Sequence record: OR644643.1 | DNA: 64,000 nt | From: Klebsiella phage NU-KP11 | Strand: one strand, 5' to 3' | Shown: one piece after another, positions 3,666 through 51,042 of the stretch | How positions within the stretch are numbered: position 1 is the first letter of the stretch | Layout of the letters: each line of letters begins with the position of its first letter | Notes under the pieces: generated by a model | The model's database searches: none | Told to the model about the DNA's origin: nothing | Seen by the model: only the letters and a program-made list of their open reading frames with translations | Program-made: the position numbers and the translations under genes

Positions 3666-4664
3666 ATGGAACTTAGTGAAAATATTGAAATCATCGAAAC
3701 CAAATACGGTAAAATCTCCCGATCTCCTGATGAATTTGCATGGGATCAGCGCTATCGCCCAACAACGATTGAAGAGTGTATTTTACCTTCTGGTGACAAA
3801 GCCGCTATGCGGGGCATAATCAAATCTGGGCGTGTTGAGAACATGACCCTTGTATCTGATTCCCCTGGCACTGGTAAAACGACCCTCGCGCTTGTGTTGG
3901 CCCGTGAGGTTGATGCTGAGGTGTTCTTTGTCAACGGTTCGAACTGTGGTGTAAACTTCATTCGTAATGAACTGGATCGTTTTGCTTCATCAATGACGCA
4001 GAAACCAGGCGGAAAGATCATCATCATTGATGAATTCGATCGTTCTGGTATGGCGGAAGCACAGAAACACTTGCGTAGCTTTATCGAAGCATACAGTAAA
4101 AACGTTTCTGTTATTGTAACAGCGAACAACATTAACGGTGTGCATAGTGCTCTGCTTTCTCGTTGCCCTCCTGTTAAATTCGGTGTTCCGTCTGATGCTG
4201 AACGTATCGAACTGATGAAACAGTTAATCAAGCGTTGTTTCGGTATCCTTGAAATCGAGAATATCAAGTATGATCCTAAAGTCATTGCAGCGTTTGTTAA
4301 AGAGCATTATCCGGATGCGCGTTCTATTATCAAAGCGATCGGGTTCTACTCGAAACGTGGTGAAATTGATGCGGGGATCCTAAATGAGATCGTTGGTTCT
4401 GATGTGTCTCATATCATTACCCTGTTGAAAGAAAAGAACTATAAAGGGTTGCGCTCTGAGGTTATTAAATATGCGTCAGAATACGATACCTTTATCGGAA
4501 AATTGACTGATACGATTTACCCTATCGTGAATCAGGATTCGAAAATCGCACTGATCCAGATTGTAGGCGAAAACAACGCGCAATACGGGCTGGCAATGAA
4601 TAAAGAAATTCATCTGCAATATCTGTTGATGAACCTGATGCTTTCTATGGTCTGGGAGGCGTAA
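3666..4664 (+). CDS. 44: clamp loader large subunit gp44 (AAA+)
   Basis: 332 aa. Walker A SPGTGKTT and Walker B IIIDEFD. Position 45-44-62-regA-43 as in T4. Confidence 0.9.
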   Translation: MELSENIEIIETKYGKISRSPDEFAWDQRYRPTTIEECILPSGDKAAMRGIIKSGRVENMTLVSDSPGTGKTTLALVLAREVDAEVFFVNGSNCGVNFIRNELDRFASSMTQKPGGKIIIIDEFDRSGMAEAQKHLRSFIEAYSKNVSVIVTANNINGVHSALLSRCPPVKFGVPSDAERIELMKQLIKRCFGILEIENIKYDPKVIAAFVKEHYPDARSIIKAIGFYSKRGEIDAGILNEIVGSDVSHIITLLKEKNYKGLRSEVIKYASEYDTFIGKLTDTIYPIVNQDSKIALIQIVGENNAQYGLAMNKEIHLQYLLMNLMLSMVWEA

Positions 4665-14137: not shown

Positions 14138-14626
14138 ATGAGTGATCAATTAGTTAAAAATATGGATTTAACATATAGCGTCCGGATGATCCGGCTACTC
14201 AAAAAGCCCTGGACTGAATGGACTGCTTACAAACTGGGGATCCTTGATGGACAAGGCGAAGTAATTCGCAACCCCAAAACAAAAGAAGAGTTAGAAGCGT
14301 ATTCTCCTTTTCATCGTTCAGTACGCCATATCAAGCGTAGAATGAATTCTGTTCCGTATATGACTGGGTTTATGAACCTAACCAGTTCATATGATACCCT
14401 ACGCAATCGCTACAATCTGACAGAACAAGAGCATGAAGAAATCATGTTGAACGTTCCACGCCTCAAAGAATATTATGATAAGGGGCGCATGTTAGAGGAT
14501 ATGGTCGCGGGTGATTCTGGCGGCGATACAGAAAAGATTGCTTCTGGTGTGACTACTGGAGCAGTAACCAACATCGGGCCGAAAGTATTAGGCGTTACCC
14601 GTGCAGGGAAAAGGAAAAAGAAATGA
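14138..14626 (+). CDS. hypothetical protein (162 aa), basic C-terminus
   Basis: ORF directly downstream of the MTase. No family recognised. Confidence 0.5.
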   Translation: MSDQLVKNMDLTYSVRMIRLLKKPWTEWTAYKLGILDGQGEVIRNPKTKEELEAYSPFHRSVRHIKRRMNSVPYMTGFMNLTSSYDTLRNRYNLTEQEHEEIMLNVPRLKEYYDKGRMLEDMVAGDSGGDTEKIASGVTTGAVTNIGPKVLGVTRAGKRKKK

Positions 14627-14841
14627 TAATTCCTCCGCTGAATATCACTATCTGGGCTACTGCTAACGATTATACATGGTTTCCAATTTGTATCATGTAT
14701 ATGAGTGACAACGCGACCGTTTATCAGAATCGTCGAAAAGGTTCTGATAAAATTGATATTGCAATAAATTATTCGTTTAAACAGGCATTTCGTGGTTGGA
14801 AGTTAATGCTTGACGGAACAGAAAAGCAAGTAAGTTCTTGA
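14623..14841 (+). CDS. hypothetical small protein (72 aa), weak
   Basis: ORF with an ATGA overlap. Low-complexity composition, so it may be non-coding. Confidence 0.3.
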   Translation: MIIPPLNITIWATANDYTWFPICIMYMSDNATVYQNRRKGSDKIDIAINYSFKQAFRGWKLMLDGTEKQVSS

Positions 14842-16914: not shown

Positions 16915-17201
16915 TTACAAAATATTATATCGTCGTTAGTAAGGATAAAGACGGGTTTAAAATCCCCTTCATTAAGGAGGGAGAGTTAACACCTTTGTTG
17001 TTTCTATCTCCGGACGATGCTAACGAGTATAAAAATTCGATTATCAAAGAATATAATGATAAGATGAATCCAGTTAAACAAAGTGGTCTTAGCCGATTCT
17101 TTCGAAAGGAAGAAGTGGAAACCGTAACCGAAAAGAAAAAGAAAGATATGCGTTGGTTTATTGAACACGCAAGTATTCAAGGGGTATTGATTAAAGTATG
17201 A
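16911..17201 (+). CDS. hypothetical protein (96 aa)
   Basis: ORF with an ATGA overlap. Confidence 0.5.
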   Translation: MITKYYIVVSKDKDGFKIPFIKEGELTPLLFLSPDDANEYKNSIIKEYNDKMNPVKQSGLSRFFRKEEVETVTEKKKKDMRWFIEHASIQGVLIKV

Positions 17202-18526
17202 GCGAATTAACTTTTGACGATCTGAGCGAAGACCAGAAAAACGCACATGATCGAGTGATTAAAAATATCAGAAACAAAATCCATACTACTATCACAGGTG
17301 GGCCGGGTGTTGGTAAAACTACTCTGGTAAAATTTGTGTTTGAAACATTGAAAAAACTGGGTATTAGTGGGATCTGGCTGACAGCGCCGACACACCAGGC
17401 TAAAAACGTTCTCTCTGAGGCGGTGGGTATGGATGCAACGACCATTCACTCAGCACTGAAAATCAGCCCCGTGACCAACGAAGAGTTACGAGTATTTGAA
17501 CAGCAAAAAGGCAAAAAGGCCGCTGATCTGTCTGAATGTCGTGTGTTTGTGGTTGAAGAAGTATCGATGGTTGACAAAGAACTATTCCGTATCATCAAGC
17601 GTACTATTCCTAGTTGTGCGGTGATCCTGGGATTGGGTGATAAGGATCAGATCCGTCCGGTTAATACCGAAGGGATCACCGAGCTTTCACCGTTCTTTGA
17701 TGAGGAAATTTTTGATGTCATTCGCATGGATAAGATTATGCGTCAGGCAGAAGGAAACCCAATCATCCAGGTATCACGCGCTATACGCGACGGTAAGCCG
17801 TTAATGCCCCTCATGAATGGTGAACTAGGGGTAATGAAGCACGAAAACGCTGGTGACTTCCTGAGACGTTATTTTAGCCGTGTTAAGACTCCGGATGACC
17901 TGAACAATAACCGTATGTTTGCTTACACTAACGCAAACGTAGACAAGTTAAACGCAGTGATCCGCAAACACTTGTACAAAACTGATCAGCCGTTCATTGT
18001 TGGTGAAGTGGTTGTGATGCAAGAACCGTTAGTGACAGAAGGCCGTGTGAATGGGGTTTCGTTTGTTGAAGTTATCTATAACAACAACGAGCAAATTAAA
18101 ATTCTTGAAATCATCCCGCGTTCTGATACTATCAAAGCTGACCGATGCGATCCGGTGCAAATCGATTATTTCTTGATGAAAACAGAATCGATGTTCGAGG
18201 ATACGAAAGCGGATATTCAGGTTATCGCGGATCCGGTTATGCAGGAACGTTTAGGCGATTATTTGAACTACGTCGCGTTTCAGTATAAGAAGATGAAACA
18301 GGAAACCGGATACAAAGCCCCCTGGTATTCGTTCTGGCAAATCAAAAACAAGTTCCAGACGGTTAAGGCGCTTCCGGTTTGTACGTATCACAAAGGTCAG
18401 GGAAGCACGTATGATCATTCATACATGTATACGCGCGATGCATACGCATACGCCGATTATGAATTGTGTAAGCAGTTGCTTTATGTAGGAACTACCCGCG
18501 CACGATTCACTGTTGATTATGTCTAA
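17198..18526 (+). CDS. dda: Dda DNA helicase (SF1)
   Basis: 442 aa. TFDDLSEDQKNA, GGPGVGKTTL, APTHQAKNVL, CRVFVVEEVSM, VGEVVVMQEP and LLYVGTTRARFTVDYV match T4 Dda. Confidence 0.95.
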   Translation: MSELTFDDLSEDQKNAHDRVIKNIRNKIHTTITGGPGVGKTTLVKFVFETLKKLGISGIWLTAPTHQAKNVLSEAVGMDATTIHSALKISPVTNEELRVFEQQKGKKAADLSECRVFVVEEVSMVDKELFRIIKRTIPSCAVILGLGDKDQIRPVNTEGITELSPFFDEEIFDVIRMDKIMRQAEGNPIIQVSRAIRDGKPLMPLMNGELGVMKHENAGDFLRRYFSRVKTPDDLNNNRMFAYTNANVDKLNAVIRKHLYKTDQPFIVGEVVVMQEPLVTEGRVNGVSFVEVIYNNNEQIKILEIIPRSDTIKADRCDPVQIDYFLMKTESMFEDTKADIQVIADPVMQERLGDYLNYVAFQYKKMKQETGYKAPWYSFWQIKNKFQTVKALPVCTYHKGQGSTYDHSYMYTRDAYAYADYELCKQLLYVGTTRARFTVDYV

Positions 18527-20093: not shown

Positions 20094-20130
20094 AAAGCCC
20101 TTGACTTCGGTTGAGGGCTTTTGTTATATT
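20094..20130 (+). promoter_or_regulatory. fused terminator hairpin / early promoter module
   Basis: aaagcccttgacttcggttgagggcttttgttatatt. The -35 TTGACT is in the stem, then an 18-nt spacer and TGtTATATT. Confidence 0.65.
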
Positions 20131-20306: not shown

Positions 20307-20531
20307 ATGCGTATAGCGATTATTGGGGCGGCTTTGGGTGTAATCGGTGACCGTTTAGTAAACTGCATGATCGAAGAGTTAAAGTCACCACCCTATCCAT
20401 TTTCTATAGAATGGAACAACCAATTTCCTAATTTGGTTGGGGAAGAACCCACGATCCATAAAGTCAAACCATACCGAAATCCGGTTGTGCCTAAATCATT
20501 GCACCGTCAATCAGTAAACAGGGGTAAATGA
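20307..20531 (+). CDS. hypothetical protein (74 aa), N-terminal hydrophobic
   Basis: ORF with an RBS aattaaggggtgattt. Confidence 0.5.
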   Translation: MRIAIIGAALGVIGDRLVNCMIEELKSPPYPFSIEWNNQFPNLVGEEPTIHKVKPYRNPVVPKSLHRQSVNRGK

Positions 20532-20830
20532 TGTCAGAATTCGCGTTAGCTATCCTTGTCGTGATTGCTGTAATGGGTTCGATCCTGTTTTGTCGCATGT
20601 ATCAGTTAGATGATACACAGGAATGGTTGGACATTAACGAAAAACAGTTCCGTAAGCACTTTGCAGGTGAATTTGTTTTTGTGAAATTTCGTAGTGACTA
20701 CAAGGTCGAGTTTGAGTTTTACGGAAAAGGGAACAACTACCACATAATCACTTCTGTTATTGATGCAAAGAAAATCTTTGATAAGACACAGGGCGGCGGG
20801 ATCCGTAAATTGCTCAAAGAAATAAAATAG
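20528..20830 (+). CDS. membrane-anchored protein (100 aa)
   Basis: N-terminal TM segment FALAILVVIAVMGSILF. ATGA overlap. Confidence 0.5.
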   Translation: MMSEFALAILVVIAVMGSILFCRMYQLDDTQEWLDINEKQFRKHFAGEFVFVKFRSDYKVEFEFYGKGNNYHIITSVIDAKKIFDKTQGGGIRKLLKEIK

Positions 20831-20844
20831 CACTTTTTGTTAAA

Positions 20845-20880
20845 GAAGCCTCTTGCATCGCGGGAGGCTTTTTGGTATCT
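20845..20880 (+). promoter_or_regulatory. fused terminator hairpin / early promoter module
   Basis: aagcctcttgcatcgcgggaggctttttggtatctt with -35 TTGCAT. Confidence 0.55.
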
Positions 20881-20918
20881 TGTATTCATCGAAACGAAAC
20901 AGAGAAAGGAATACGAAA

Positions 20919-21182
20919 ATGGTTAAAGTAAAATATGCAGCACACGTTAAAGCAGGTGAGATTGTTGGTTTAACTTTCGGTGCTGAAATTGGTTCTCAGT
21001 GGGCGCTGGTTGAAAAGGTAGAAGACCTGGGCGATAAAGTAGCAATCACTGTGAAAATGCAAAAACGTTTTACTAACCGTCCTGTAATCACTAAGAAAGT
21101 GAAGAAGGAAAAACGTGTTAATACTCAGACTTTCGAAGAATTCATGAACTGGTGCAAAATGTATAAACTGGATACCTACTAA
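20919..21182 (+). CDS. hypothetical early protein (87 aa)
   Basis: Own promoter module (20852-20880), conserved leader CATCGAAACGAAAC and an RBS agaaagga. The track ORF start at 20853 lies inside the promoter. Confidence 0.6.
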   Translation: MVKVKYAAHVKAGEIVGLTFGAEIGSQWALVEKVEDLGDKVAITVKMQKRFTNRPVITKKVKKEKRVNTQTFEEFMNWCKMYKLDTY

Positions 21183-21255
21183 TAGCACTTTTTGTTAAAA
21201 TATTCTGGGGTAGCTTTGGTATAGTTACCCCATCGAAACAAGGGAGGAAATTATT

Positions 21256-21480
21256 ATGATGGTTAACGGTTCTCTTTATCAACAAGCAGTTGCACAGTGG
21301 AAACAGAAAGTTCAGGATGCAGAACGCGGGATCGCTTATTGTGATGAAGCGTTGGCAAGTAATCTTGAAAACTGGGAACGCAAAGAGTATGAGAAAGTTA
21401 AGCAACGCCATTTGAACGAACTCCCTGCATTAAAAGAACACTTAAAATATTTGATGGATAACGAAAAAATCCTTGCATAG
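21256..21480 (+). CDS. hypothetical early protein (74 aa)
   Basis: Own promoter TGgTATAGT, leader CATCGAAACAAG and an RBS gggagga. Confidence 0.6.
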   Translation: MMVNGSLYQQAVAQWKQKVQDAERGIAYCDEALASNLENWERKEYEKVKQRHLNELPALKEHLKYLMDNEKILA

Positions 21481-21539
21481 AATAACCATCTTTGATATAG
21501 TACTTACATCGAAACGAAACACACTTTAGGAGATATACC

Positions 21540-21869
21540 ATGAACACTTTCGAAATCCTCGCAGAAAAAGCAGCCCCTTTCATGGAAGCAATGTACAAAG
21601 CGCGTAACGCTCGTTTCCAAGATTCTCCTTTCGAAACTGTTTTCGTTCTGGAGAAAGGCCGCAAATATCATCGTGTTGTTCAGGATACTCGCAACAAAGA
21701 AACAGGCGAAATGTTCAATCAGCGTTCTGTTGCCGCCTTCATCGATAATGATGGTAATATCCTGAAACCTGCAAGCTGGAAAGCACCAGCAAAAGGAATT
21801 CGTGGCAATATCTTCAATGACGCAGACCGTGCGATTGACCAAAGCGGTTATGTGGTTTATCTTCGTTAA
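21540..21869 (+). CDS. hypothetical early protein (109 aa)
   Basis: Own promoter TGaTATAGT, leader CATCGAAACGAAAC and an RBS taggaga. Followed by a terminator hairpin. Confidence 0.6.
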   Translation: MNTFEILAEKAAPFMEAMYKARNARFQDSPFETVFVLEKGRKYHRVVQDTRNKETGEMFNQRSVAAFIDNDGNILKPASWKAPAKGIRGNIFNDADRAIDQSGYVVYLR

Positions 21870-23373: not shown

Positions 23374-23814
23374 ATGTTCGTATATCGTGTGGAATTTTCT
23401 TGTTCTTTCTGGAATGATTGTACAGAAAAATGGCAAACAAAAAGCGGCCCATATGTCAATCGTTATTTGTCAATGGATACTGCTGAATGGTTGGATCAAT
23501 TCTGTATGAATCCTGATATCTATATTGATATGGATGATAACCGACATCCAGCGCCGGATGACGATAATCGATTGATGCGCAACCTTGAAAAAGATAACAT
23601 AGACTTTCAAGCGGCTGGGTTATACTTTGGTTTTCAGTCAATACAGCGCCTTTCTCGTTGGTTCAATGCATATGAACGCGAGTACATGCACAATGTTGGT
23701 TTCGTCTGCATGGTATACGAAGTTGAAAAGTTGTATCCGGGCGCACGTCAATGTGTTTTTGACATAGACAAAGCCCGTTTAGTTAAGATGTTAAGTTTAA
23801 AAGAGATTTATTAA
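23374..23814 (+). CDS. hypothetical protein (146 aa)
   Basis: ORF with an RBS gtgaggattatatc. Confidence 0.5.
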   Translation: MFVYRVEFSCSFWNDCTEKWQTKSGPYVNRYLSMDTAEWLDQFCMNPDIYIDMDDNRHPAPDDDNRLMRNLEKDNIDFQAAGLYFGFQSIQRLSRWFNAYEREYMHNVGFVCMVYEVEKLYPGARQCVFDIDKARLVKMLSLKEIY

Positions 23815-23978
23815 TGCCTACCTATACCTATAAATGCACCAAGTGTAATAAAGAATTTCCAAAAATGGCAAGCATTGCTACCCGTGATGCACCGAAAGAT
23901 TGTGATTGCGGAGGCGAAGCAAAACGAACGGTTGATAAACCTCAAATGGTTCGTGATGGTTTCCCTTATAACAAGTAA
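23814..23978 (+). CDS. FmdB-like zinc-ribbon protein (54 aa); not in the supplied ORF track
   Basis: MPTYTYKCTKCNKEFP...DCDCGG gives CxxC...CxC. TAATG start overlap, and the stop is followed directly by the terminator hairpin at 23978-23995. Confidence 0.55.
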   Translation: MPTYTYKCTKCNKEFPKMASIATRDAPKDCDCGGEAKRTVDKPQMVRDGFPYNK

Positions 23979-24001: not shown

Positions 24002-24045
24002 CATAGAACCCTATATAATGTCAGTGATTAAACAAAGAGGTGAAT

Positions 24046-25944
24046 ATGAGTTTAGATTTTCTTCTGGCAGATGATGAACCAGAACAGAAACCACAACCAG
24101 CCAAAAAAGGCGCAAAGGTTGACGAATCATTTTGTATGAGCGATCGCGATCATATTCGGTTGCGTCCAAATATGTACGTCGGATCGGTTAACAAAGAAGC
24201 GCATGAACGTTTCATAATGGGCCAATATCGCAAGGTTGAGTACGTGGAAGGGTTGGTTAAAATCATCAACGAAATCCTTGATAACTCGATTGATGAAGCG
24301 ATCCGAACTGAATTCAAACATGCTAATAAGATTGATGTAACCATTGATCATAATCTGGTTAAAATCTCTGATAACGGGCGCGGTATTCCCCAGGATGATG
24401 TAAAAACCCCAGATGGGAAAATAGTTCCTAAACCAGTTGCGGCATGGACTATGGCAAAATCGGGTTCTAACTTCGATGATAAAAACCGCGTAACGATGGG
24501 TATGAATGGTGTTGGTTCTTTCCTGACAAACTGTTATAGCTCGATTTTTATTGGCGAGACTGCAAACGGGAAACGCAAAGTAACCATTAACTGTACGGAC
24601 GGCGCACAGAACATCGATTACCGAACCAGCCCCAGTAAAGAACAAGGTACTACTGTTAAGTTTACTCCAGACTTCTCTATGTTTGGTGTAACTGGTATCG
24701 ATGAAGAAACCAAAGAAGTGATTAAGGATCGCTTAATGGCCCTTGCCGTTGCTTTCCCGTCTGTGAAATTCACATATAACGGCGAAACGCTCTCTAATCG
24801 CTTCCCGCTGTACGCTTCCATGTATGGGGATAAAACCATTGTCCAGACAAATAATCGCCTCAGCTTCATTCTGGCGAGCACTGAGGACGGGTTTAAACAG
24901 AAATCCTTTGTTAACGGTCTGGATACGAAAAACGGCGGTGTTCATGTTGAGTGTATGATTGATGGTATCTATTCTGAACTTGAACCGATGATCAAGAAAA
25001 AGCATAGTATCGAGATCCCGAAAGCACGTGTAAAAGAATGCTTAACTCTTGTGGTATTCCTGCATAACTTTAATGCACCTGCATTCGATAGCCAAACAAA
25101 AGAGCGATTAGCAAATACAGCAGGTGAGTTTAACAATCATGCGAATTTGAACTACAAAAAGATCGCAAAAATGATTATGGATACCCCAGAAATCATTACT
25201 CCGATCATTGAATCCGCATTGATTCGTAAACAAGCAGCAGAAGCCGCCGCGATCACCAAAGCGAAAAAGAAAGCAAAAAAGGCAAAAATTGCTAAACACG
25301 TTCCGGCTTCCGGTATTGATACCCCTGGGGTAGAAACAACATTGTTTCTGACAGAAGGCGATTCCGCTGTTGGTCAGTTCATCGAATGCCGTAATGAAGA
25401 AACACAAGGCGCTTTCCCGCTACGTGGTAAGCCTCTGAATACATGGGGTATGAGTTTTACAGACATTATCAAAAACAAAGAACTGTTTGAGCTAATGGCT
25501 ATCCTCAATATTCATCCTGGTGATACTTCCGGAATGACTTATGATAATATCGGCATCATGGTCGATGCTGACGTTGACGGCGGCGACATTTTAACTCTGT
25601 TGCTTGCATTCTTTAGCCGTTGGCCTTCTTTGTTCACTGAGAAACGGATCCGATATATTCGAACCCCGATCGTTATCGCTAAAGTTGGGCGCGAGGAAAA
25701 ATGGTTCTATTCTCTTGATGAGTTTGCGCCGTTCCGCGATAAAGCAAAAGATGTACGATATATCAAGGGGCTGGGTTCTTTACGCAAAGAAGATTACGAC
25801 CGTGTTCTGGGTGATCAGTTGAAGTATGATGTCATTGTACTTGACGACGAATACAAAGAAGTGTTAGAACTATGCTTCGGCGACGAATCTGATCCGCGTA
25901 AAGATTGGGTTAATGGAAAACACAAATTTTCTAAGGTTGACTAA
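24046..25944 (+). CDS. 39: DNA topoisomerase II large subunit (fused gp39+gp60 equivalent, GyrB-like ATPase)
   Basis: About 632 aa. GHKL ATPase motifs INEILDNSIDEA and ISDNGRGIP, TOPRIM LFLTEGDSA...IMVDADVDG. RBS aaagaggtgaat precedes the ATG at 24046; the track start 24040 is GTG. Confidence 0.9.
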   Translation: MSLDFLLADDEPEQKPQPAKKGAKVDESFCMSDRDHIRLRPNMYVGSVNKEAHERFIMGQYRKVEYVEGLVKIINEILDNSIDEAIRTEFKHANKIDVTIDHNLVKISDNGRGIPQDDVKTPDGKIVPKPVAAWTMAKSGSNFDDKNRVTMGMNGVGSFLTNCYSSIFIGETANGKRKVTINCTDGAQNIDYRTSPSKEQGTTVKFTPDFSMFGVTGIDEETKEVIKDRLMALAVAFPSVKFTYNGETLSNRFPLYASMYGDKTIVQTNNRLSFILASTEDGFKQKSFVNGLDTKNGGVHVECMIDGIYSELEPMIKKKHSIEIPKARVKECLTLVVFLHNFNAPAFDSQTKERLANTAGEFNNHANLNYKKIAKMIMDTPEIITPIIESALIRKQAAEAAAITKAKKKAKKAKIAKHVPASGIDTPGVETTLFLTEGDSAVGQFIECRNEETQGAFPLRGKPLNTWGMSFTDIIKNKELFELMAILNIHPGDTSGMTYDNIGIMVDADVDGGDILTLLLAFFSRWPSLFTEKRIRYIRTPIVIAKVGREEKWFYSLDEFAPFRDKAKDVRYIKGLGSLRKEDYDRVLGDQLKYDVIVLDDEYKEVLELCFGDESDPRKDWVNGKHKFSKVD

Positions 25945-27230: not shown

Positions 27231-27235
27231 TAACA

Positions 27236-27271
27236 AAGCCTCTTGCAATGCAAGAGGCTTTTTGCTATATT
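27236..27271 (+). promoter_or_regulatory. fused terminator hairpin / early promoter module
   Basis: aaagcctcttgcaatgcaagaggctttttgctatatt with -35 TTGCAA in the stem and TGcTATATT. Confidence 0.6.
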
Positions 27272-33097: not shown

Positions 33098-33102
33098 TTA
33101 AA

Positions 33103-33139
33103 AAGCCCTTGACTTCGGTCAGGGGCTTTTGCTATATTA
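33103..33139 (+). promoter_or_regulatory. fused terminator hairpin / early promoter module
   Basis: aaagcccttgacttcggtcaggggcttttgctatatt. The -35 TTGACT is in the stem, then TGcTATATT. Confidence 0.65.
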
Positions 33140-33177
33140 GCCATATCGAAACGAGATACCCTTTAAGGAGAAATACC

Positions 33178-33975
33178 ATGACTAACGCAACCGTAGTTAC
33201 TACCACTTACTTCATTTCTTCTGGTCGTAAAAATGCAATGTATACCTTGCGTGTTGAGCGTAGAGGTGGCGGTTATACTTCTGATAACTATATCTGCAAC
33301 TTATCTACCGATCCGGAGAAAGCGGAAGCGAAAGCGCGTGAGTATTTCGACCGTGTTTCAGCCCGTTTAACTGAAACTGATACTTTCAAAATGGTATTCC
33401 AGGGCTTTGCAGATTTCGATCTGTTCGAACGTCGCGGTAAACTGTCAGTGTTCGATACTGAAAAACTGGAACTGCTGGAAAAAGGGATCATGCCGATTGG
33501 CAAGCGTAAAGGCGAAGTAATTGCAGAAATGCCAATGTTTACTGTTCTTTGGTGGGCTGACCAGTCTAAAGAAGACAACAAAAACAGCCCTGTATTTGAC
33601 GCCGTGTGCGCTTACTGCATGGGTGTTGCACTGGAGAAGGATTATATCGCCAAACGCGAAGAAATCCGCGAACAGTGGGAACAAGAGCGCCAGGAACGCA
33701 TTTCTAAAGCTAACCACATCGGTGAAATCAAACAACGTCTGGAAATGACCGGAACCGTTGAGAAAGTGATTTCACTGGGATATACTCAAGTTTCTTACTA
33801 CACTTCTGTAGAAAGATTCATGACCAAAATTAATGTTGATGGTAATGTTGTTGTTTACTTCGGTAATAACATTGCAAACGAAGGTGATGAAATCACTTTC
33901 AAAGCAACCGTTAAAGAGCACGGAGAATACAAAGACGTTAAACAAACCATCGTTCAACGTGTAAAGGTTTTATAA
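33178..33975 (+). CDS. hypothetical early protein (266 aa)
   Basis: Promoter module at 33109-33139, leader TATCGAAACGAG and an RBS taaggagaaatacc. The track ORF start 33094 lies upstream of the promoter. Confidence 0.6.
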   Translation: MTNATVVTTTYFISSGRKNAMYTLRVERRGGGYTSDNYICNLSTDPEKAEAKAREYFDRVSARLTETDTFKMVFQGFADFDLFERRGKLSVFDTEKLELLEKGIMPIGKRKGEVIAEMPMFTVLWWADQSKEDNKNSPVFDAVCAYCMGVALEKDYIAKREEIREQWEQERQERISKANHIGEIKQRLEMTGTVEKVISLGYTQVSYYTSVERFMTKINVDGNVVVYFGNNIANEGDEITFKATVKEHGEYKDVKQTIVQRVKVL

Positions 33976-41871: not shown

Positions 41872-44800
41872 TATGCCACCCACTCAAATTTAACTGTCTG
41901 AGTAACCGGATCTGGGTAAATCTTAACATTACCAACTTTGATCCAATCGGTAACAGTCATGTTTTTAACCGTAGTACCAACAGCAGACGTTGCACCAATC
42001 TCGCCAGCAGTAGGCGGGTTGTTGCTGGTATACATGCGGCCCCACTCATCAAATTTACCCGTGATTGGGTTCATTTGACGGATCCAGAAGGATTGCGCCA
42101 GCGCATTAACACCAGTACCAGAGGTCGGACGAGGTGCCCAAATCTGATAAGTGAATGCAGTTCCGTTACCAAACTGCGTTAAAGTACCAGGTGCTTTAAC
42201 ATAGGTATAACGGGTTACAATCATGATATCCGGATTAATCGGGTCTGGTTCAAGAACCGGAACCGCATAACCAGGAAGCAAGTTGTACTGTGCCGATGCA
42301 GTGATCTCCGCCGTCCAGTTACCCCTAGATGCTTCTGTTACTGCATCCAGCGTTGACCAAGCCGCTTGACCTGCGATGATAATTGAACTGTTGTTTACCG
42401 TCAACCGTCCAGACATCGTATCACCTGCTTTACGTACATACGTAGGATTCAGCAAGGTTTGCGCGTTCTTCTCAGTAAAGACTTTATAAGAGTTCGCAGA
42501 TTCTTCCGCTACGATGTTGCCAGCATCAGAAGTCAGGATCTTAGTTGTCTTATTTTTAGTACCCATAGAGAGAACAGAACCAGCAGCCGTGATCACTGTA
42601 TCATTACCCAGCGTCACTTTGCTAATCGCCTGAATTTCAGGAGCCTGGAATTTAACGTTAGCTACAACGCCGCGAGTATCATTATACACAGAAAGATGAA
42701 CTGTGCTAGTGTTACCCGTTGAGATCATTGCAATACGCCCAGAGGCTGAACTTGCTTGAATTGACCAGTCGTTAGATGAACCACCATTCAAACGAAGTTT
42801 ACCCATCGATGAACCATCACCAACGTTCAGATCTCCACTAACATTCATTACCCGGAAACTTGCGTCGGCTGTTGAATTAATGTCAGCCTGTACAGTGGTT
42901 GCTTTCGTTAGAGTCAATGCCCCGTTAACCGTCTGATTAACATCACGACGAATGAACTGGGAAGAATCCAGGTTATCCAGCTTATCAGCATCAACCGCTT
43001 TAGCCCCGATCGGCAGATAGTGTTTCAGTGTTAAGTTCAGTTCATACGGAGAAACAGCAACACCTACAGCGGCATAACCATCATCCGGAAGAGTAGAACC
43101 AGCCACATCATTACCCGACCAAGTACCAAGCCCCTTAGACAGCTTCACAGTACCACGTACCAGATCGGTAGCTTGCCATGAAGTATCAACCTGAATTGTA
43201 TTTTTCAAGTTCTTAGGAGAAACAGCCTTGTTTGCAACGGTGCCAGCAGTAGTTTCAGTAGCCGTAGCCACCTGAATGATACCTTCTGCGCTCTCAGTCG
43301 CTTTCTTAGCGTGTAACTTCTTAGGGGTGACAAATACTGTATCTAATGTCCCTGCGTTCGTCTCAGACTGTGTAGCGACGCGTAAAGTACCACGTTGAGT
43401 TTCAGTTGCTGATTGAATACCGATGTTAACCGTAGTCCAGATAGTCCCAGATTGAGTTAACCCGTCAGCAGTAGCAACAGTAATATGGCTTGTATCGTCC
43501 AGATAACCTTTCAGTTTAGACGGTACGATCGCTTTATTCGTTACAGTACCTGCTGATACTTCGGCAGTGGTTGCAATTGCAATGATACCTGTCAGCGTTT
43601 CTGTTGCAGCACGATCGTTAAGCGTTTTAGGCGTTACCGCTCGCGTATAATCAGTCCCTGCGTTGGTTTCTGTCTGAGTAGCAATCTCGATCAAACCAAT
43701 ACGACCATCAGTAGAGGTTTTCTTGTGCAGCATTTCCGGAGTAACTACGGTCGGGATGTTTGCACTTGCAACAGTACCGTTAATAACTTCGGTTTCAGAA
43801 GCCAGCCATACAGCACCGGATTGTAACTGAGTCGCTTTATACTCACGAAGAGTTTTAGGCGTTACCGCTTTCTGATAATCTGAATGGTCATAAACCCCAG
43901 TACCAGCCTGAGCACGATCCGTGTTAGTGTTAGGAGCACCACCAGTAGCAACAAGGGCAAGGATACCAGTTAAGGTCGGCGATGCAATACGGTTATGCAA
44001 CTTTTTCGGGGTTACAATCGTAATATCATCGGTGCTTCCGTTTGTTTCTGCCTGAGTTGCGATTTCTGCCAATCCACGACGGGTTTCAGTCGCTGTTCTT
44101 TCGTTCAGCTTCTTAGGGGTAACAATCACATCATCCAGATAGCTATCGGTTGAAAGTTTGTTAACCTCGGCAGTTGTTGCTAACCGTGCAATACCACGAC
44201 GGGTTTCTGTAGCAGTTTTATTTGCTAACGTCATCGGAGTAATAGCAGTTTCGTCGTTCGGGTTATCTTCTAGGTTTTTGTTTACTTCTGCCTGTGCAGC
44301 CAGAGCAATAACACCAGTACGCGATCTGTTAGTTGCGTCAACACGTTCAACGATCGGACGATAATTAGCAACAACCCATTCTTTCGTAGCTTTCAGGTAA
44401 GAAAACTCGATATACGGGAGGTAATCACTAGCAGCATTAAATGCTAATGAAGTTACGCTAAACCAATCATCGGGCGGATAGTCTTTGCGCTGCGGGAACT
44501 GCATCATATTTTTGTTGGTGCGGATCTTGTCCGTTGTACCATCTTTAACTTTGATTGTACAGTTCTGGTTCTTACCCATCATATAAAGGGATACGTAAAC
44601 GCGATCACCATCAGCAACATCAGTTGGAAGGGTAACTGTAACGTTTGGTATAGTCCCAGAAGGGTTTGCAGTAACAAAAACGTAATCGTTAGGAACCGCG
44701 TTTAAATCACTGTAGATACGACGCAGACGAACACGGTTGTCAGCATCATATACTTTCCATTGGCTATTCTGTGCATCAAAGATGAACATACCAAAGCCGG

Positions 44801-45644
44801 ATTTCTGGCTAGTTACAGAAGTAACACCAGTACTTGCGCCGTCAGAAATAGTGTGTCCACTACCTGGATAAATCTGCAAAACGGCTACGTTGATAGAGTT
44901 CATTTTATCAGCGTCATAGGTTGTGATCACATCACCATCATTTGCATATTTCGGCAACTGGAGAGTGATTTTACCTGTAGCACTGTTACGGAAAACTGTC
45001 ATGCCAGATTGTAACTGGAATGAACCTGTTCCGGTTGCGTTCACGATCTCAGAATCGCGGTTATCCAGAGTTTCAGCAACACGCCATACGTTACCGTTAT
45101 AGATAAACGTTGCGATCATGTACGGGTGGGTCAGTCGATACTGTGCCGATTGTACAGTACGTAAACGGATCTGACGGGTGTTAGACTTAACAAGGATACT
45201 GTTCACACCTACTAAACCACCACAATCTTTAAACGTGATTACGTCGCCCTCTGTCGGGTTGTCCGGCAGCAGGTACAGAAGTTCAGTAAAGCGTCCATCA
45301 GCCATAATGTAACTACCAGATTCAATAATGCTACCATCTGGAGTGGTTACGTTACTATAAACCCATTTCGGGTCATTACGAGTTGCGATCCATTTGGATT
45401 CGTCGAAAGCCCCAGCAGGGGAAGCAATATTCTGTTTTGCGTACCAGATACGACGCGCATAAATGATCGCCATGTCTTGAGAATAACCACGGGTCGGGTC
45501 ATACTGCTGGATTCCGTTAAATTCATTGAAAAAGTCAACGTTAACGCCGTCACTCAGCGTATTACGATCAGCCTTCCCAACGTTGATAACTTTTTCACCA
45601 GCAGCATCAAGGCCACTTCGTGCGCGGAATGATTTAGCTACCAT
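41871..45644 (-). CDS. 34: long tail fibre proximal subunit gp34
   Basis: About 1257 aa. MVAKSFRARSGLDAAGEKVINV...QQYDPTRGY and C-terminal IGATSAVGTTVKNMTVTDWIKVGNVKIYPDPVTQTVKFEWVA match T4 gp34 (ends ...IVPDPVNKTVKFEWVE). Repeated TATETRRG blocks as in T4. The track start 45689 is TTG, so the ATG at 45644 is used. Late promoter TATAAATA 33 nt upstream. Confidence 0.9.
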   Translation of the reverse strand: MVAKSFRARSGLDAAGEKVINVGKADRNTLSDGVNVDFFNEFNGIQQYDPTRGYSQDMAIIYARRIWYAKQNIASPAGAFDESKWIATRNDPKWVYSNVTTPDGSIIESGSYIMADGRFTELLYLLPDNPTEGDVITFKDCGGLVGVNSILVKSNTRQIRLRTVQSAQYRLTHPYMIATFIYNGNVWRVAETLDNRDSEIVNATGTGSFQLQSGMTVFRNSATGKITLQLPKYANDGDVITTYDADKMNSINVAVLQIYPGSGHTISDGASTGVTSVTSQKSGFGMFIFDAQNSQWKVYDADNRVRLRRIYSDLNAVPNDYVFVTANPSGTIPNVTVTLPTDVADGDRVYVSLYMMGKNQNCTIKVKDGTTDKIRTNKNMMQFPQRKDYPPDDWFSVTSLAFNAASDYLPYIEFSYLKATKEWVVANYRPIVERVDATNRSRTGVIALAAQAEVNKNLEDNPNDETAITPMTLANKTATETRRGIARLATTAEVNKLSTDSYLDDVIVTPKKLNERTATETRRGLAEIATQAETNGSTDDITIVTPKKLHNRIASPTLTGILALVATGGAPNTNTDRAQAGTGVYDHSDYQKAVTPKTLREYKATQLQSGAVWLASETEVINGTVASANIPTVVTPEMLHKKTSTDGRIGLIEIATQTETNAGTDYTRAVTPKTLNDRAATETLTGIIAIATTAEVSAGTVTNKAIVPSKLKGYLDDTSHITVATADGLTQSGTIWTTVNIGIQSATETQRGTLRVATQSETNAGTLDTVFVTPKKLHAKKATESAEGIIQVATATETTAGTVANKAVSPKNLKNTIQVDTSWQATDLVRGTVKLSKGLGTWSGNDVAGSTLPDDGYAAVGVAVSPYELNLTLKHYLPIGAKAVDADKLDNLDSSQFIRRDVNQTVNGALTLTKATTVQADINSTADASFRVMNVSGDLNVGDGSSMGKLRLNGGSSNDWSIQASSASGRIAMISTGNTSTVHLSVYNDTRGVVANVKFQAPEIQAISKVTLGNDTVITAAGSVLSMGTKNKTTKILTSDAGNIVAEESANSYKVFTEKNAQTLLNPTYVRKAGDTMSGRLTVNNSSIIIAGQAAWSTLDAVTEASRGNWTAEITASAQYNLLPGYAVPVLEPDPINPDIMIVTRYTYVKAPGTLTQFGNGTAFTYQIWAPRPTSGTGVNALAQSFWIRQMNPITGKFDEWGRMYTSNNPPTAGEIGATSAVGTTVKNMTVTDWIKVGNVKIYPDPVTQTVKFEWVA

Positions 45645-50980: not shown

Positions 50981-51004
50981 AATCTGTCTCCTTTTTCGAT
51001 AGGC

Positions 51005-51042
51005 CCAATATAACAAAAGCCCTCAACCGAAGTCAAGGGCTT
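51005..51042 (-). promoter_or_regulatory. reverse-oriented copy of the fused terminator/promoter module (terminates nrdD, promotes 50738-50980)
   Basis: Minus strand reads aaaaagcccttgacttcggttgagggcttttgttatattggg, nearly identical to 20094-20130. Confidence 0.65.

Follow-up and report, generated by a model that had tools for sequence, protein, structure and literature searches.

The 64,000-nucleotide (nt) stretch of Klebsiella phage NU-KP11 analysed here (OR644643.1; "the window" refers to this whole stretch) carries two short repeats among small genes: a 13-nt motif, ATCGAAACGAAAC, that recurs with variants just downstream of -10 promoter elements, and a 19-nt direct repeat (the 19-mer) upstream of two of these promoters. 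Their sequences, spacing and distribution among phages make it probable, in our judgement, that both are parts of modular early-promoter cassettes of the promoter-early stem-loop (PeSL) type, in which the motif would be the initial transcribed sequence and the 19-mer a marbox for a host activator. The first-pass annotation had proposed a co-regulated set of early genes in tandemly duplicated cassettes. A repeated set of early-type sigma-70 promoters is indeed supported, as are the place of the motif, at the predicted +1, and the tandem recurrence of the cassettes between small genes. The duplication holds for the regulatory DNA but not for the genes, since the downstream proteins of 87, 74, 109 and 265 amino acids (aa) show no mutual similarity in blastp; only regulatory DNA is thus repeated.

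A recurrent motif at a fixed distance from the -10 element

Eight cassette promoters are found in the window, each cassette spanning the stop codon of the preceding gene to the ATG of the next, in the order stop codon, upstream element, GC stem-loop, extended -10, leader, Shine-Dalgarno sequence (SD) and ATG. All eight have an extended -10 (TGn plus TAnnnT), and six have a -35-like TTGACT, TTGCAT or TTGCAA placed 17-18 bp 5' of it. In the cassettes at 20125, 27266, 33133, 51012 (minus strand) and 5631, the -35 (TTGACT, TTGCAT or TTGCAA) lies in the stem or loop of a GC-rich terminator-like stem-loop that is followed by a T run and then TGnTATATT; terminator-like stems were mapped at 20843-20873, 20094-20121 and 27235-27261. 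A generic sigma-70 promoter scan of the window gave 31 matches against 34.4 in shuffled sequences, and this lack of enrichment makes such a scan unusable on its own. The features of the motif-bearing cassettes, four of them on the plus strand with -10 hexamers starting at 20876, 21220, 21496 and 33133, are as follows (ORF, open reading frame).

20827..20846, plus strand: marbox-like box copy A, ATAGCACTTTTTGTTAAAGA, overlapping the 19-mer at 20826-20844; forward, 29 nt 5' of the -10
20843..20873, plus strand: terminator-like GC stem-loop AAGAAGCCTCTTGCATCGCGGGAGGCTTTTT from the terminator scan; 14 pairs, then a T run
20853-20858, plus strand: -35-like TTGCAT of cassette A, within the stem-loop, 17 bp from the -10
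20873..20881, plus strand: extended -10 of cassette A (TGG TATCTT)
20888..20900, plus strand: predicted initial transcribed sequence ATCGAAACGAAAC, +1 to +13, of the 87-aa gene (ATG 20919, ORF 20919-21182)
21182..21201, plus strand: marbox-like box copy B, ATAGCACTTTTTGTTAAAAT; forward, 18 nt 5' of the -10, without a -35 hexamer
21207..21231, plus strand: hairpin GGGGTA...TACCCC, its 3' arm being the discriminator and its loop holding the extended -10 TGG TATAGT (21217-21225)
21232..21239, plus strand: predicted initial transcribed sequence ATCGAAAC of the 74-aa gene (ORF 21256-21480)
21473..21501, plus strand: cassette C promoter, with TTGCAT (21473-21478), a 17-bp spacer ending in TGA, and TATAGT (21496-21501)
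21508..21520, plus strand: predicted initial transcribed sequence ATCGAAACGAAAC of the 109-aa gene (ORF 21540-21869)
33100..33138, plus strand: cassette D stem-loop and -10, with TTGACT (33109-33114) in the stem-loop and TGC TATATT (33133-33138); promoter scan 10/12 with TG
33145..33157, plus strand: predicted initial transcribed sequence ATCGAAACGAgAt of the 265-aa gene (ORF 33178-33975)
50994..51040, minus strand: cassette E, with TTGACT (51036-51031) in a stem-loop, TGT TATATT (-10 at 51012-51007), discriminator gggcct and ATCGAAA (51000-50994)
50980-50738, minus strand: 80-aa ORF of cassette E, downstream of the ATCGAAA at 51000

Cassette A (20826-20921) thus runs from the 19-mer box through the stem-loop to TGGTATCTT, and cassette B (21181-21258) from the box through an 18-nt spacer to TGGTATAGT, without a -35 and with a 6-bp hairpin, GGGGTA/TACCCC, around the -10.

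The motif begins exactly 6 nt past the -10 hexamer in five of the eight cassettes (ATCGAAA at 20888, 21232, 21508, 33145 and, on the minus strand, 51000; binomial P = 1.6e-17). The first-pass annotation had listed the first four of these at five to six nt; all four are real, but the fifth, upstream of the 80-aa ORF, had been missed, and the exact 13-mer occurs in the window at 20888-20900 and 21508-21520 only. The copy at 21232 is ATCGAAAC followed by aag, and that at 33145 matches the 13-mer in 11 of 13 positions. Three of the proposed protein lengths stand (87, 74 and 109 aa), while the fourth protein has 265 residues, not 266. The cassettes that had been said to lack the motif (5631, 20125 and 27266) do lack it.

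Copy number by itself is a poor guide here. The 8-mer ATCGAAAC is not rare (8 copies in the window against 4.2 expected), and two of the five occurrences of CATCGAAAC (0.91 expected) lie within genes, at 3692 and 22184. The significant feature of the motif is its position, namely the offset from the -10. This position suggests that the motif is the initial transcribed sequence, with a predicted start at its A, 7 nt after the -10, a reading that we hold to be likely jointly with the cassette and marbox assignments. In all five leaders in the window the first 8-9 nt are unpaired, the leaders are no more stable than shuffles, the 60-nt leader of cassette A has no predicted structure (minimum free energy 0), and Rfam returned no match in the window at E <= 1.

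The 19-mer matches an intergenic repeat of T1-like phages

Two exact copies of the 19-mer occur in the window, at 20826-20844 and 21181-21199 (0.07 expected); the first had been placed one base off in the first-pass annotation, the second correctly. As had been noted, both lie at stop codons. In copy 1 the internal TAG (20828-20830) is the stop codon of ORF 20528-20830, and copy 2 overlaps the TAA stop at 21180-21182, with its own TAG next in frame. The downstream ATG follows at 93 nt from the copy at 20826 and at 75 nt from the copy at 21181. The 19-mer had been taken as a sign of duplication; our comparisons point instead to an upstream promoter element that matches the marbox.

This assignment begins with the finding that the 19-mer equals a 21-nt intergenic repeat of the phages T1 and TLS, aaATAGCACnnnTTGnTAAAA. 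TLS has 18 such repeats with this consensus, which also occur in T1, Rtp and Rogue1 and whose function was left open (German et al., 2024, PMC11447400). The copies described here resemble the T1-like repeat in consensus and in co-orientation with transcription, and the start codon lies at a similar distance (75 nt from copy B, about 76 nt in TLS). New in comparison with that report are the presence in T4-like myoviruses, the fixed 18-bp register of the box to a -10 and the marbox match. BLAST of the cassettes matched intergenic DNA in about 250 T1-like siphoviruses. Webervirus PKP126, Tunavirus Sfin-1 and a Veterinaerplatzvirus share the whole layout: ATAGCACTTTTTGTTAAAA, 18-20 nt with a hairpin, TATAGT, 6 nt and ATCGAAAC. 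T1-like Drexlerviridae carry 15-20 copies per genome, and T4-like Slopekvirus and Pseudotevenvirus about 5.

Spacing within this larger set is equally regular. From all loci compared we collected 247 distinct box copies, all chosen by an exact core pattern and hence uniform in the core. A -10-like hexamer lies exactly 22 nt after TTGNTA, that is, 18 nt after the 20-nt box, in 167 of the 247 (68%), and every other spacing accounts for 20 or fewer; G is present at -14 in 147 of these 167 box promoters. At least five of six hairpin pairs form around the -10 in the register of cassette B in 52/167, against 2-22 in shifted registers, and with several pair types.

We further note that compensatory changes in relatives (GGGGTA/TACCCC, GGGATA/TATCCC, GGGGTT/AACCCC) preserve the 6-bp hairpin whose loop holds the extended -10, and that the hairpin at 21207-21231 is not followed by a U tract. 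In PKP126, for the boxes at 4087, 17351, 17918, 19074, 19677, 20905 and 22511, the TAG in ATAGCAC is usually the stop codon of the upstream gene; genes thus end inside the box, and any exchange there leaves a properly terminated ORF. One 148-kb IMG/VR contig has a box at about 3852 on the minus strand with TGtTATTAT 17 nt downstream, and the element may reach further phage groups.

The box resembles a class II marbox

The 19-mer matches the first 18 positions of the marbox consensus AYnGCACnnWnnRYYAAAY with no mismatch, and the box agrees with gcannwwntgnnaaa at 15/15 positions and has no mismatch to GCANNWWNTGNNAAA. The long consensus AYNGCACNNWNNRYYAAA has two matches in the window, which are the two 19-mer copies (0.11 expected), and in PKP126, where 0.84 perfect marbox matches would be expected, there are 18. 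Phage copies differ from one another at positions 8, 9, 10 (T/A) and 14 (C/T), which are degenerate positions of the marbox. Compared with the marbox of E. coli K-12 mar, ATGCCACGTTTTGCTAAATC, the phage box ATAGCACGTTTTGCTAAAAC is identical at 17 of 20 positions.

The location of the box within the promoter is likewise that of a class II site, in which a forward marbox overlaps the -35. The phage box spans -50 to -31 with its centre near -41, within the published class II range, and RamA sits at about -41 on the Klebsiella micF promoter. The class II promoter of E. coli micF reads ACAGCACTGAATGTCAAAAC + 18 nt + TAGAAT, the same spacing as in the phage promoters. Copy B (21182-21201) has this geometry, being forward, 18 nt from the -10 and over the -35 position. 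For copy A, which lies 29 nt from the -10, a parallel is E. coli zwf, where a marbox-like site in forward orientation, with 3 mismatches to the consensus, stands 30 nt from the -10; copy A may work in a zwf-like mode. On these grounds we predict that the 19-mer is a marbox, an asymmetric site bound by monomeric activators of the AraC family, for the host proteins MarA, SoxS or Rob (and RamA in Klebsiella), on which the phage promoters would depend for activation.

A host protein is also suggested by what the phages share. No MarA homologue was found by tblastn in PKP126 or in PSKm4DII, a Slopekvirus 99% identical to the window, and no DNA-binding protein common to the two was detectable. The only proteins that these two phages have in common are a polynucleotide kinase and a DUF5417 protein. 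The absence of a shared phage regulator makes a common phage-encoded binder unlikely.

Several points weigh against the combined interpretation. Position 19 departs from the consensus (A or G against Y, here A), as it also does in micF, where it is likewise A. Copy A misses the class II position and may be a relic; in one Slopekvirus contig it has lost 1 nt. In E. coli many matches to the marbox consensus, which is degenerate, are non-functional, and activation by MarA-family proteins is usually modest, about 2-fold for RamA. The phage box is far more uniform than host marboxes, and 62% of its copies can be read as the palindrome TAGCA-N5-TGCTA, a fitting site for a protein that binds as a dimer, for instance the Cro/YdaS-like regulator of T1-like phages. 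With regard to the motif, a literature search for Slopekvirus transcription start sites gave no mapped 5' ends, its possible effects on promoter escape and translation are argued by analogy only, and the identical sequences across phage families could largely reflect horizontal spread of cassettes.

The palindrome leads directly to the strongest competing explanation, that the box is a site for some other factor, either a phage dimeric helix-turn-helix (HTH) protein acting as a stoperator-like repressor or as an activator, or the alpha C-terminal domain of RNA polymerase in a UP-like contact. We regard this as unlikely, though it has more in its favour than any other alternative. The TLS authors themselves proposed stoperators, enhancer sites or UP elements (PMC11447400), the quasi-palindrome is centred near -42, T1-like phages do encode a Cro/YdaS-like HTH protein, and the T5 and A4 runs resemble UP subsites. 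However, an invariant GCAC is unexpected for a UP element, and the right arm reads TGTTA in 37% of copies, which breaks the palindrome and fits the Y of the marbox. All changes in the boxes of Slopekvirus and RB43-like phages fall at degenerate marbox positions, no T1-like regulator has a detectable homologue in PSKm4DII, and the one-directional orientation with 18-bp spacing to the -10 suits a promoter element over a stoperator.

Other known elements fit the box poorly. A sigma-54 reading of TAGCAC-N-TTGC has AG in place of GG, a spacing 2 bp short and a misfitting start site. If TTGYTA were a normal -35 the spacer would be 22 bp, and there is no alternative -10 17 bp downstream. The spacing is wrong for a T4 MotA box, and a canonical UP element would be off register by about 8 bp and leave the invariant GCAC unexplained. 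Consensus sequences for H-NS, IHF, PhoP and NAD capping were compared by eye and did not fit.

The motif occurs at the predicted +1 of unrelated phages

Across the whole PSKm4DII genome, 11 copies of ATCGAAA lie exactly 6 nt past a -10 and 19-33 nt before an SD and ATG, and three near-variants (gTCGAAAC, ATaGAAAC and AcaGAAAC) share this offset; about 65 further copies are dispersed in coding DNA. The 6-nt discriminator between -10 and motif varies (gtattc, tacccc, acttac, agccat, gggcct, acacac and others), and for this reason the motif is not simply a piece of one duplicated block. The RB43-like phages Lw1, CfP1 and vB_EkoM5VN carry the same cassettes.

A scan of IMG/VR with CATCGAAACGAAAC extended this to at least 111 distinct contexts (IMG/VR figures here and below are among the matches listed). 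A -10-like hexamer stands exactly 6 nt 5' of CATCGAAACGAAAC in 79 of the 111, and other offsets reach at most 16. Lambdoid prophages with many different operator sets form the largest group. In phi80 pL, the -35 and -10 annotated in the record are followed by tactcc and ATCGAAACGAAACATCGAC, and in HK639 a putative pL, located about 67 nt before a putL-like RNA, has the motif at its predicted +1; the lambdoid leaders had no Rfam match. The 13-mer is also at the predicted +1 in T1-like siphoviruses, and T4-like cyanophages (cyanomyoviruses) have TAGACT + 6 nt + ATCGAAACGAAAC. At their annotated start sites, the T7 promoters A1 and A3 begin with ATCGAGAGGG and ATGAAACGACAG, respectively. The motif is coupled to at least three unrelated upstream architectures and, in lambdoid phages, to many operator sets. 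A literature search by motif sequence string did not find this shared +1 sequence described.

The 167 box promoters with the fixed 18-bp register, picked by the upstream box only and not by the leader, give an independent view of the same region. From +1 their consensus is ATCGAAACGAA, with A at +1 in 148/167, C dominant at -4 to -1, and hardly any T between +4 and +18 (4-17/167). The commonest 8-mer at +1 is ATCGAAAC (32/167), followed by ATCGACAA, ATTGAAGC and ACACCAAC. This consensus identifies the motif as the commonest form of an A/C-rich, U-poor, unstructured leader start.

Two further observations concern the leaders themselves. In at least about 75 IMG/VR prophage loci, HK639 and phi80, conservation starts at the predicted +1 of pL with ATCGAAACGAAAC and ATCGA, followed by one of two hairpin-forming leaders, which places the mosaic boundary at the predicted transcript start in N-type (phi80) and put-type (HK639) phages alike. 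Contigs of T4-like cyanophages have repeated cassettes of a hairpin, CCCTG, TAGACT, aacagc and then ATCGAAACGAAAC, ATCAACCACAGAC or ATGACAAACAACC, with the ATG 5-10 nt on; these leaders are A/C-rich, U-poor and without an obvious SD.

Such a wide distribution could also arise if the repeats had no sequence-specific function, being recent copies made by PeSL-like recombination, gene conversion or horizontal transfer in promoters where only the -10 matters. Several cassettes do share the entire leader up to the ATG, a crossover lies inside the motif in Slopekvirus KP13MC5-1, PKP126 and PSKm4DII share a DUF5417 gene whose proteins are 70% identical, and PeSL recombination is documented. Nevertheless, copying of this kind does not readily account for a variable discriminator between a conserved -10 and a conserved motif, or for a motif that keeps its place under the unrelated promoter architectures and operator sets just described. 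Nor does it explain why box-selected promoters converge on an A/C-rich, T-poor consensus despite differing in their exact words, or why the 18-bp register is fixed in 68% of distinct box copies. We consider hitch-hiking unlikely, a little more so than a different binder at the box.

Least credible is the suggestion of the first-pass annotation that the motif is an mRNA recognition or processing site through which RegA or a similar phage RNA-binding protein co-regulates the early genes: the motif would indeed lie in the transcript near the ribosome-binding site, and a regA gene is annotated in the genome of a close relative, but the motif is locked to the -10 (6 nt) while its distance to the ATG ranges over 20-33 nt, it has no structure or Rfam match, and the identical 13-mer is at the predicted +1 in T1-like phages, phi80, HK639 (with a long untranslated leader after it) and cyanomyoviruses, phages with different regulators for which a shared RNA-binding protein is unlikely, PKP126 and PSKm4DII having only the kinase and the DUF5417 protein in common.

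Comparison with known promoter systems

The cassettes place these repeats close to the PeSLs known from T4-type phages (Arbiol et al., 2010, PMC2839356; Comeau et al., 2014, PMC4122927). Shared features are a stop codon in an AT-rich stretch, a sigma-70-type promoter, a stem-loop between the -35 and -10 or over the -10, an SD and a start codon, and many copies between the small ORFs of a hyperplastic region. In RB49, PeSL mini-circles have crossovers between the -10 and the SD. The present cassettes differ in their conserved +1 sequence and putative activator site, neither of which is described for PeSLs in the parts of those papers considered here, in a -35 that is often in the terminator stem or replaced by the box, and in an extended -10 in all copies.

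With class II marbox promoters such as micF of E. coli and Klebsiella, the box shares its asymmetry, its length of 20 bp and its GCAC and AAA elements separated by 7 bp; unlike them, it occurs in virulent phage genomes, in near-identical copies and many times per T1-like genome, and its activator is a putative one. T4 middle promoters offer a parallel in that an activator site (putative here) replaces the -35 upstream of a sigma-70 -10. However, the centre of the MotA box, TGCTT, is at -30, its spacer measures about 12 bp and it depends on the phage proteins MotA and AsiA, in contrast to the 20-bp box and 18 bp found here.

The motif has its nearest counterparts in T7 A1 and A3 and T5 N25, which also have A at +1 after a pyrimidine and a purine- or A-rich, U-poor first 10-20 nt. 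T7 A1 shares CATCGA with the motif, and T7 A3 shares ATGAAACGA-CAG. Unlike these starts, the exact 8-13-mer recurs in at least five unrelated phage groups, beyond a compositional preference. PeSLs, marboxes and T1 repeats are each known, and we found no published link among them; a literature search on marbox with phage or Drexlerviridae found nothing relevant.

A proposed mechanism and its implications

The initial transcribed region is known to influence promoter escape, as at T7 A1 and T5 N25, and Rob is constitutively abundant in the host. A possible mechanism is that host sigma-70 RNA polymerase reads the cassettes and starts at the A of ATCGAAAC(GAAAC), where a purine- or A-rich, U-poor start would, by analogy with T7 A1 and T5 N25, make initiation efficient and ease promoter escape. 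Since a leader composed largely of A and C cannot fold, the ribosome site would stay open. At promoters without a -35, Rob, MarA, SoxS or RamA would bind the box and recruit polymerase; copy B would be a class II activator-dependent promoter like E. coli micF. In cassette A the terminator hairpin with its own -35, lying between box and -10, would shift the box 11 bp upstream, near the zwf arrangement.

The shared 8-13 nt would in addition serve as short homology at which cassettes recombine. Slopekvirus KP13MC5-1 has a chimeric cassette, with its upstream half from cassette B, its leader from cassette C and the crossover within the ATCGAAAC common to both, and relatives have different genes between the same cassettes. 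We also observe that the DUF5417 proteins of PKP126 (14540-14821) and PSKm4DII (44529-44807), about 70% identical, are encoded downstream of related promoter cassettes in both phages; the shared gene and cassette indicate exchange of genes and cassettes between unrelated phage families.

A broader joint proposition, to which we give somewhat less than even credence, is that class II marbox promoters drive early genes in at least two unrelated virulent lineages (T1-like Drexlerviridae, and the RB43-like and Slopekvirus T4-type phages), which would thereby plug into a host regulon, and that AUCGAAACGAAAC tags the 5' ends of early transcripts in many phages and has a specific function that goes further than its composition. 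If true, these phages would be tied into the MarA/SoxS/Rob/RamA stress and antibiotic-resistance regulon, and bile salts, salicylate and oxidative stress would act on their early expression, which would be higher in multidrug-resistant marR or ramR isolates. They would in effect sense the antibiotic-stress state through the activators behind multidrug resistance in Klebsiella and E. coli, with a bearing on phage therapy and phage-antibiotic combinations. Such promoters would also account for the few promoters that standard sigma-70 scans find in T1-like genomes. The marbox reading gives a testable function to the T1-like repeat left open in 2024, and the shared +1 sequence in cassettes running from stop to ATG suggests how unrelated phages of the same hosts could swap ready-to-express genes. 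The cassettes may also be useful for engineering, as compact, insulated promoter and leader parts.

Genomic setting and further features

The window belongs to a T4-like Klebsiella myovirus of the genus Slopekvirus and, beyond PSKm4DII, shares about 98% identity with over 100 further genomes of this genus, which belong to T4-like myoviruses and measure about 175 kb. Both repeats sit among consecutive small ORFs flanked by dda (17198-18526) and by the gene 39 topoisomerase subunit (24040-25944), an interval that is a typical early, hyperplastic region. Among the window proteins examined with Pfam, only two families were returned: the 109-aa protein of cassette C (ORF 21540-21869) is DUF7717, and ORF 23814-23978 (54 aa) is Zn_ribbon_8, an FmdB-like zinc ribbon. 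One of the cassettes without the motif contains a perfect palindromic stem-loop, AAAGCCTCTTGCAATGCAAGAGGCTTT, at 27235-27271 that is followed by an extended -10 on each strand (TGCTATATT on the plus strand and TGTTATTAT on the minus strand), and this may represent a divergent or antisense promoter pair on one shared hairpin.

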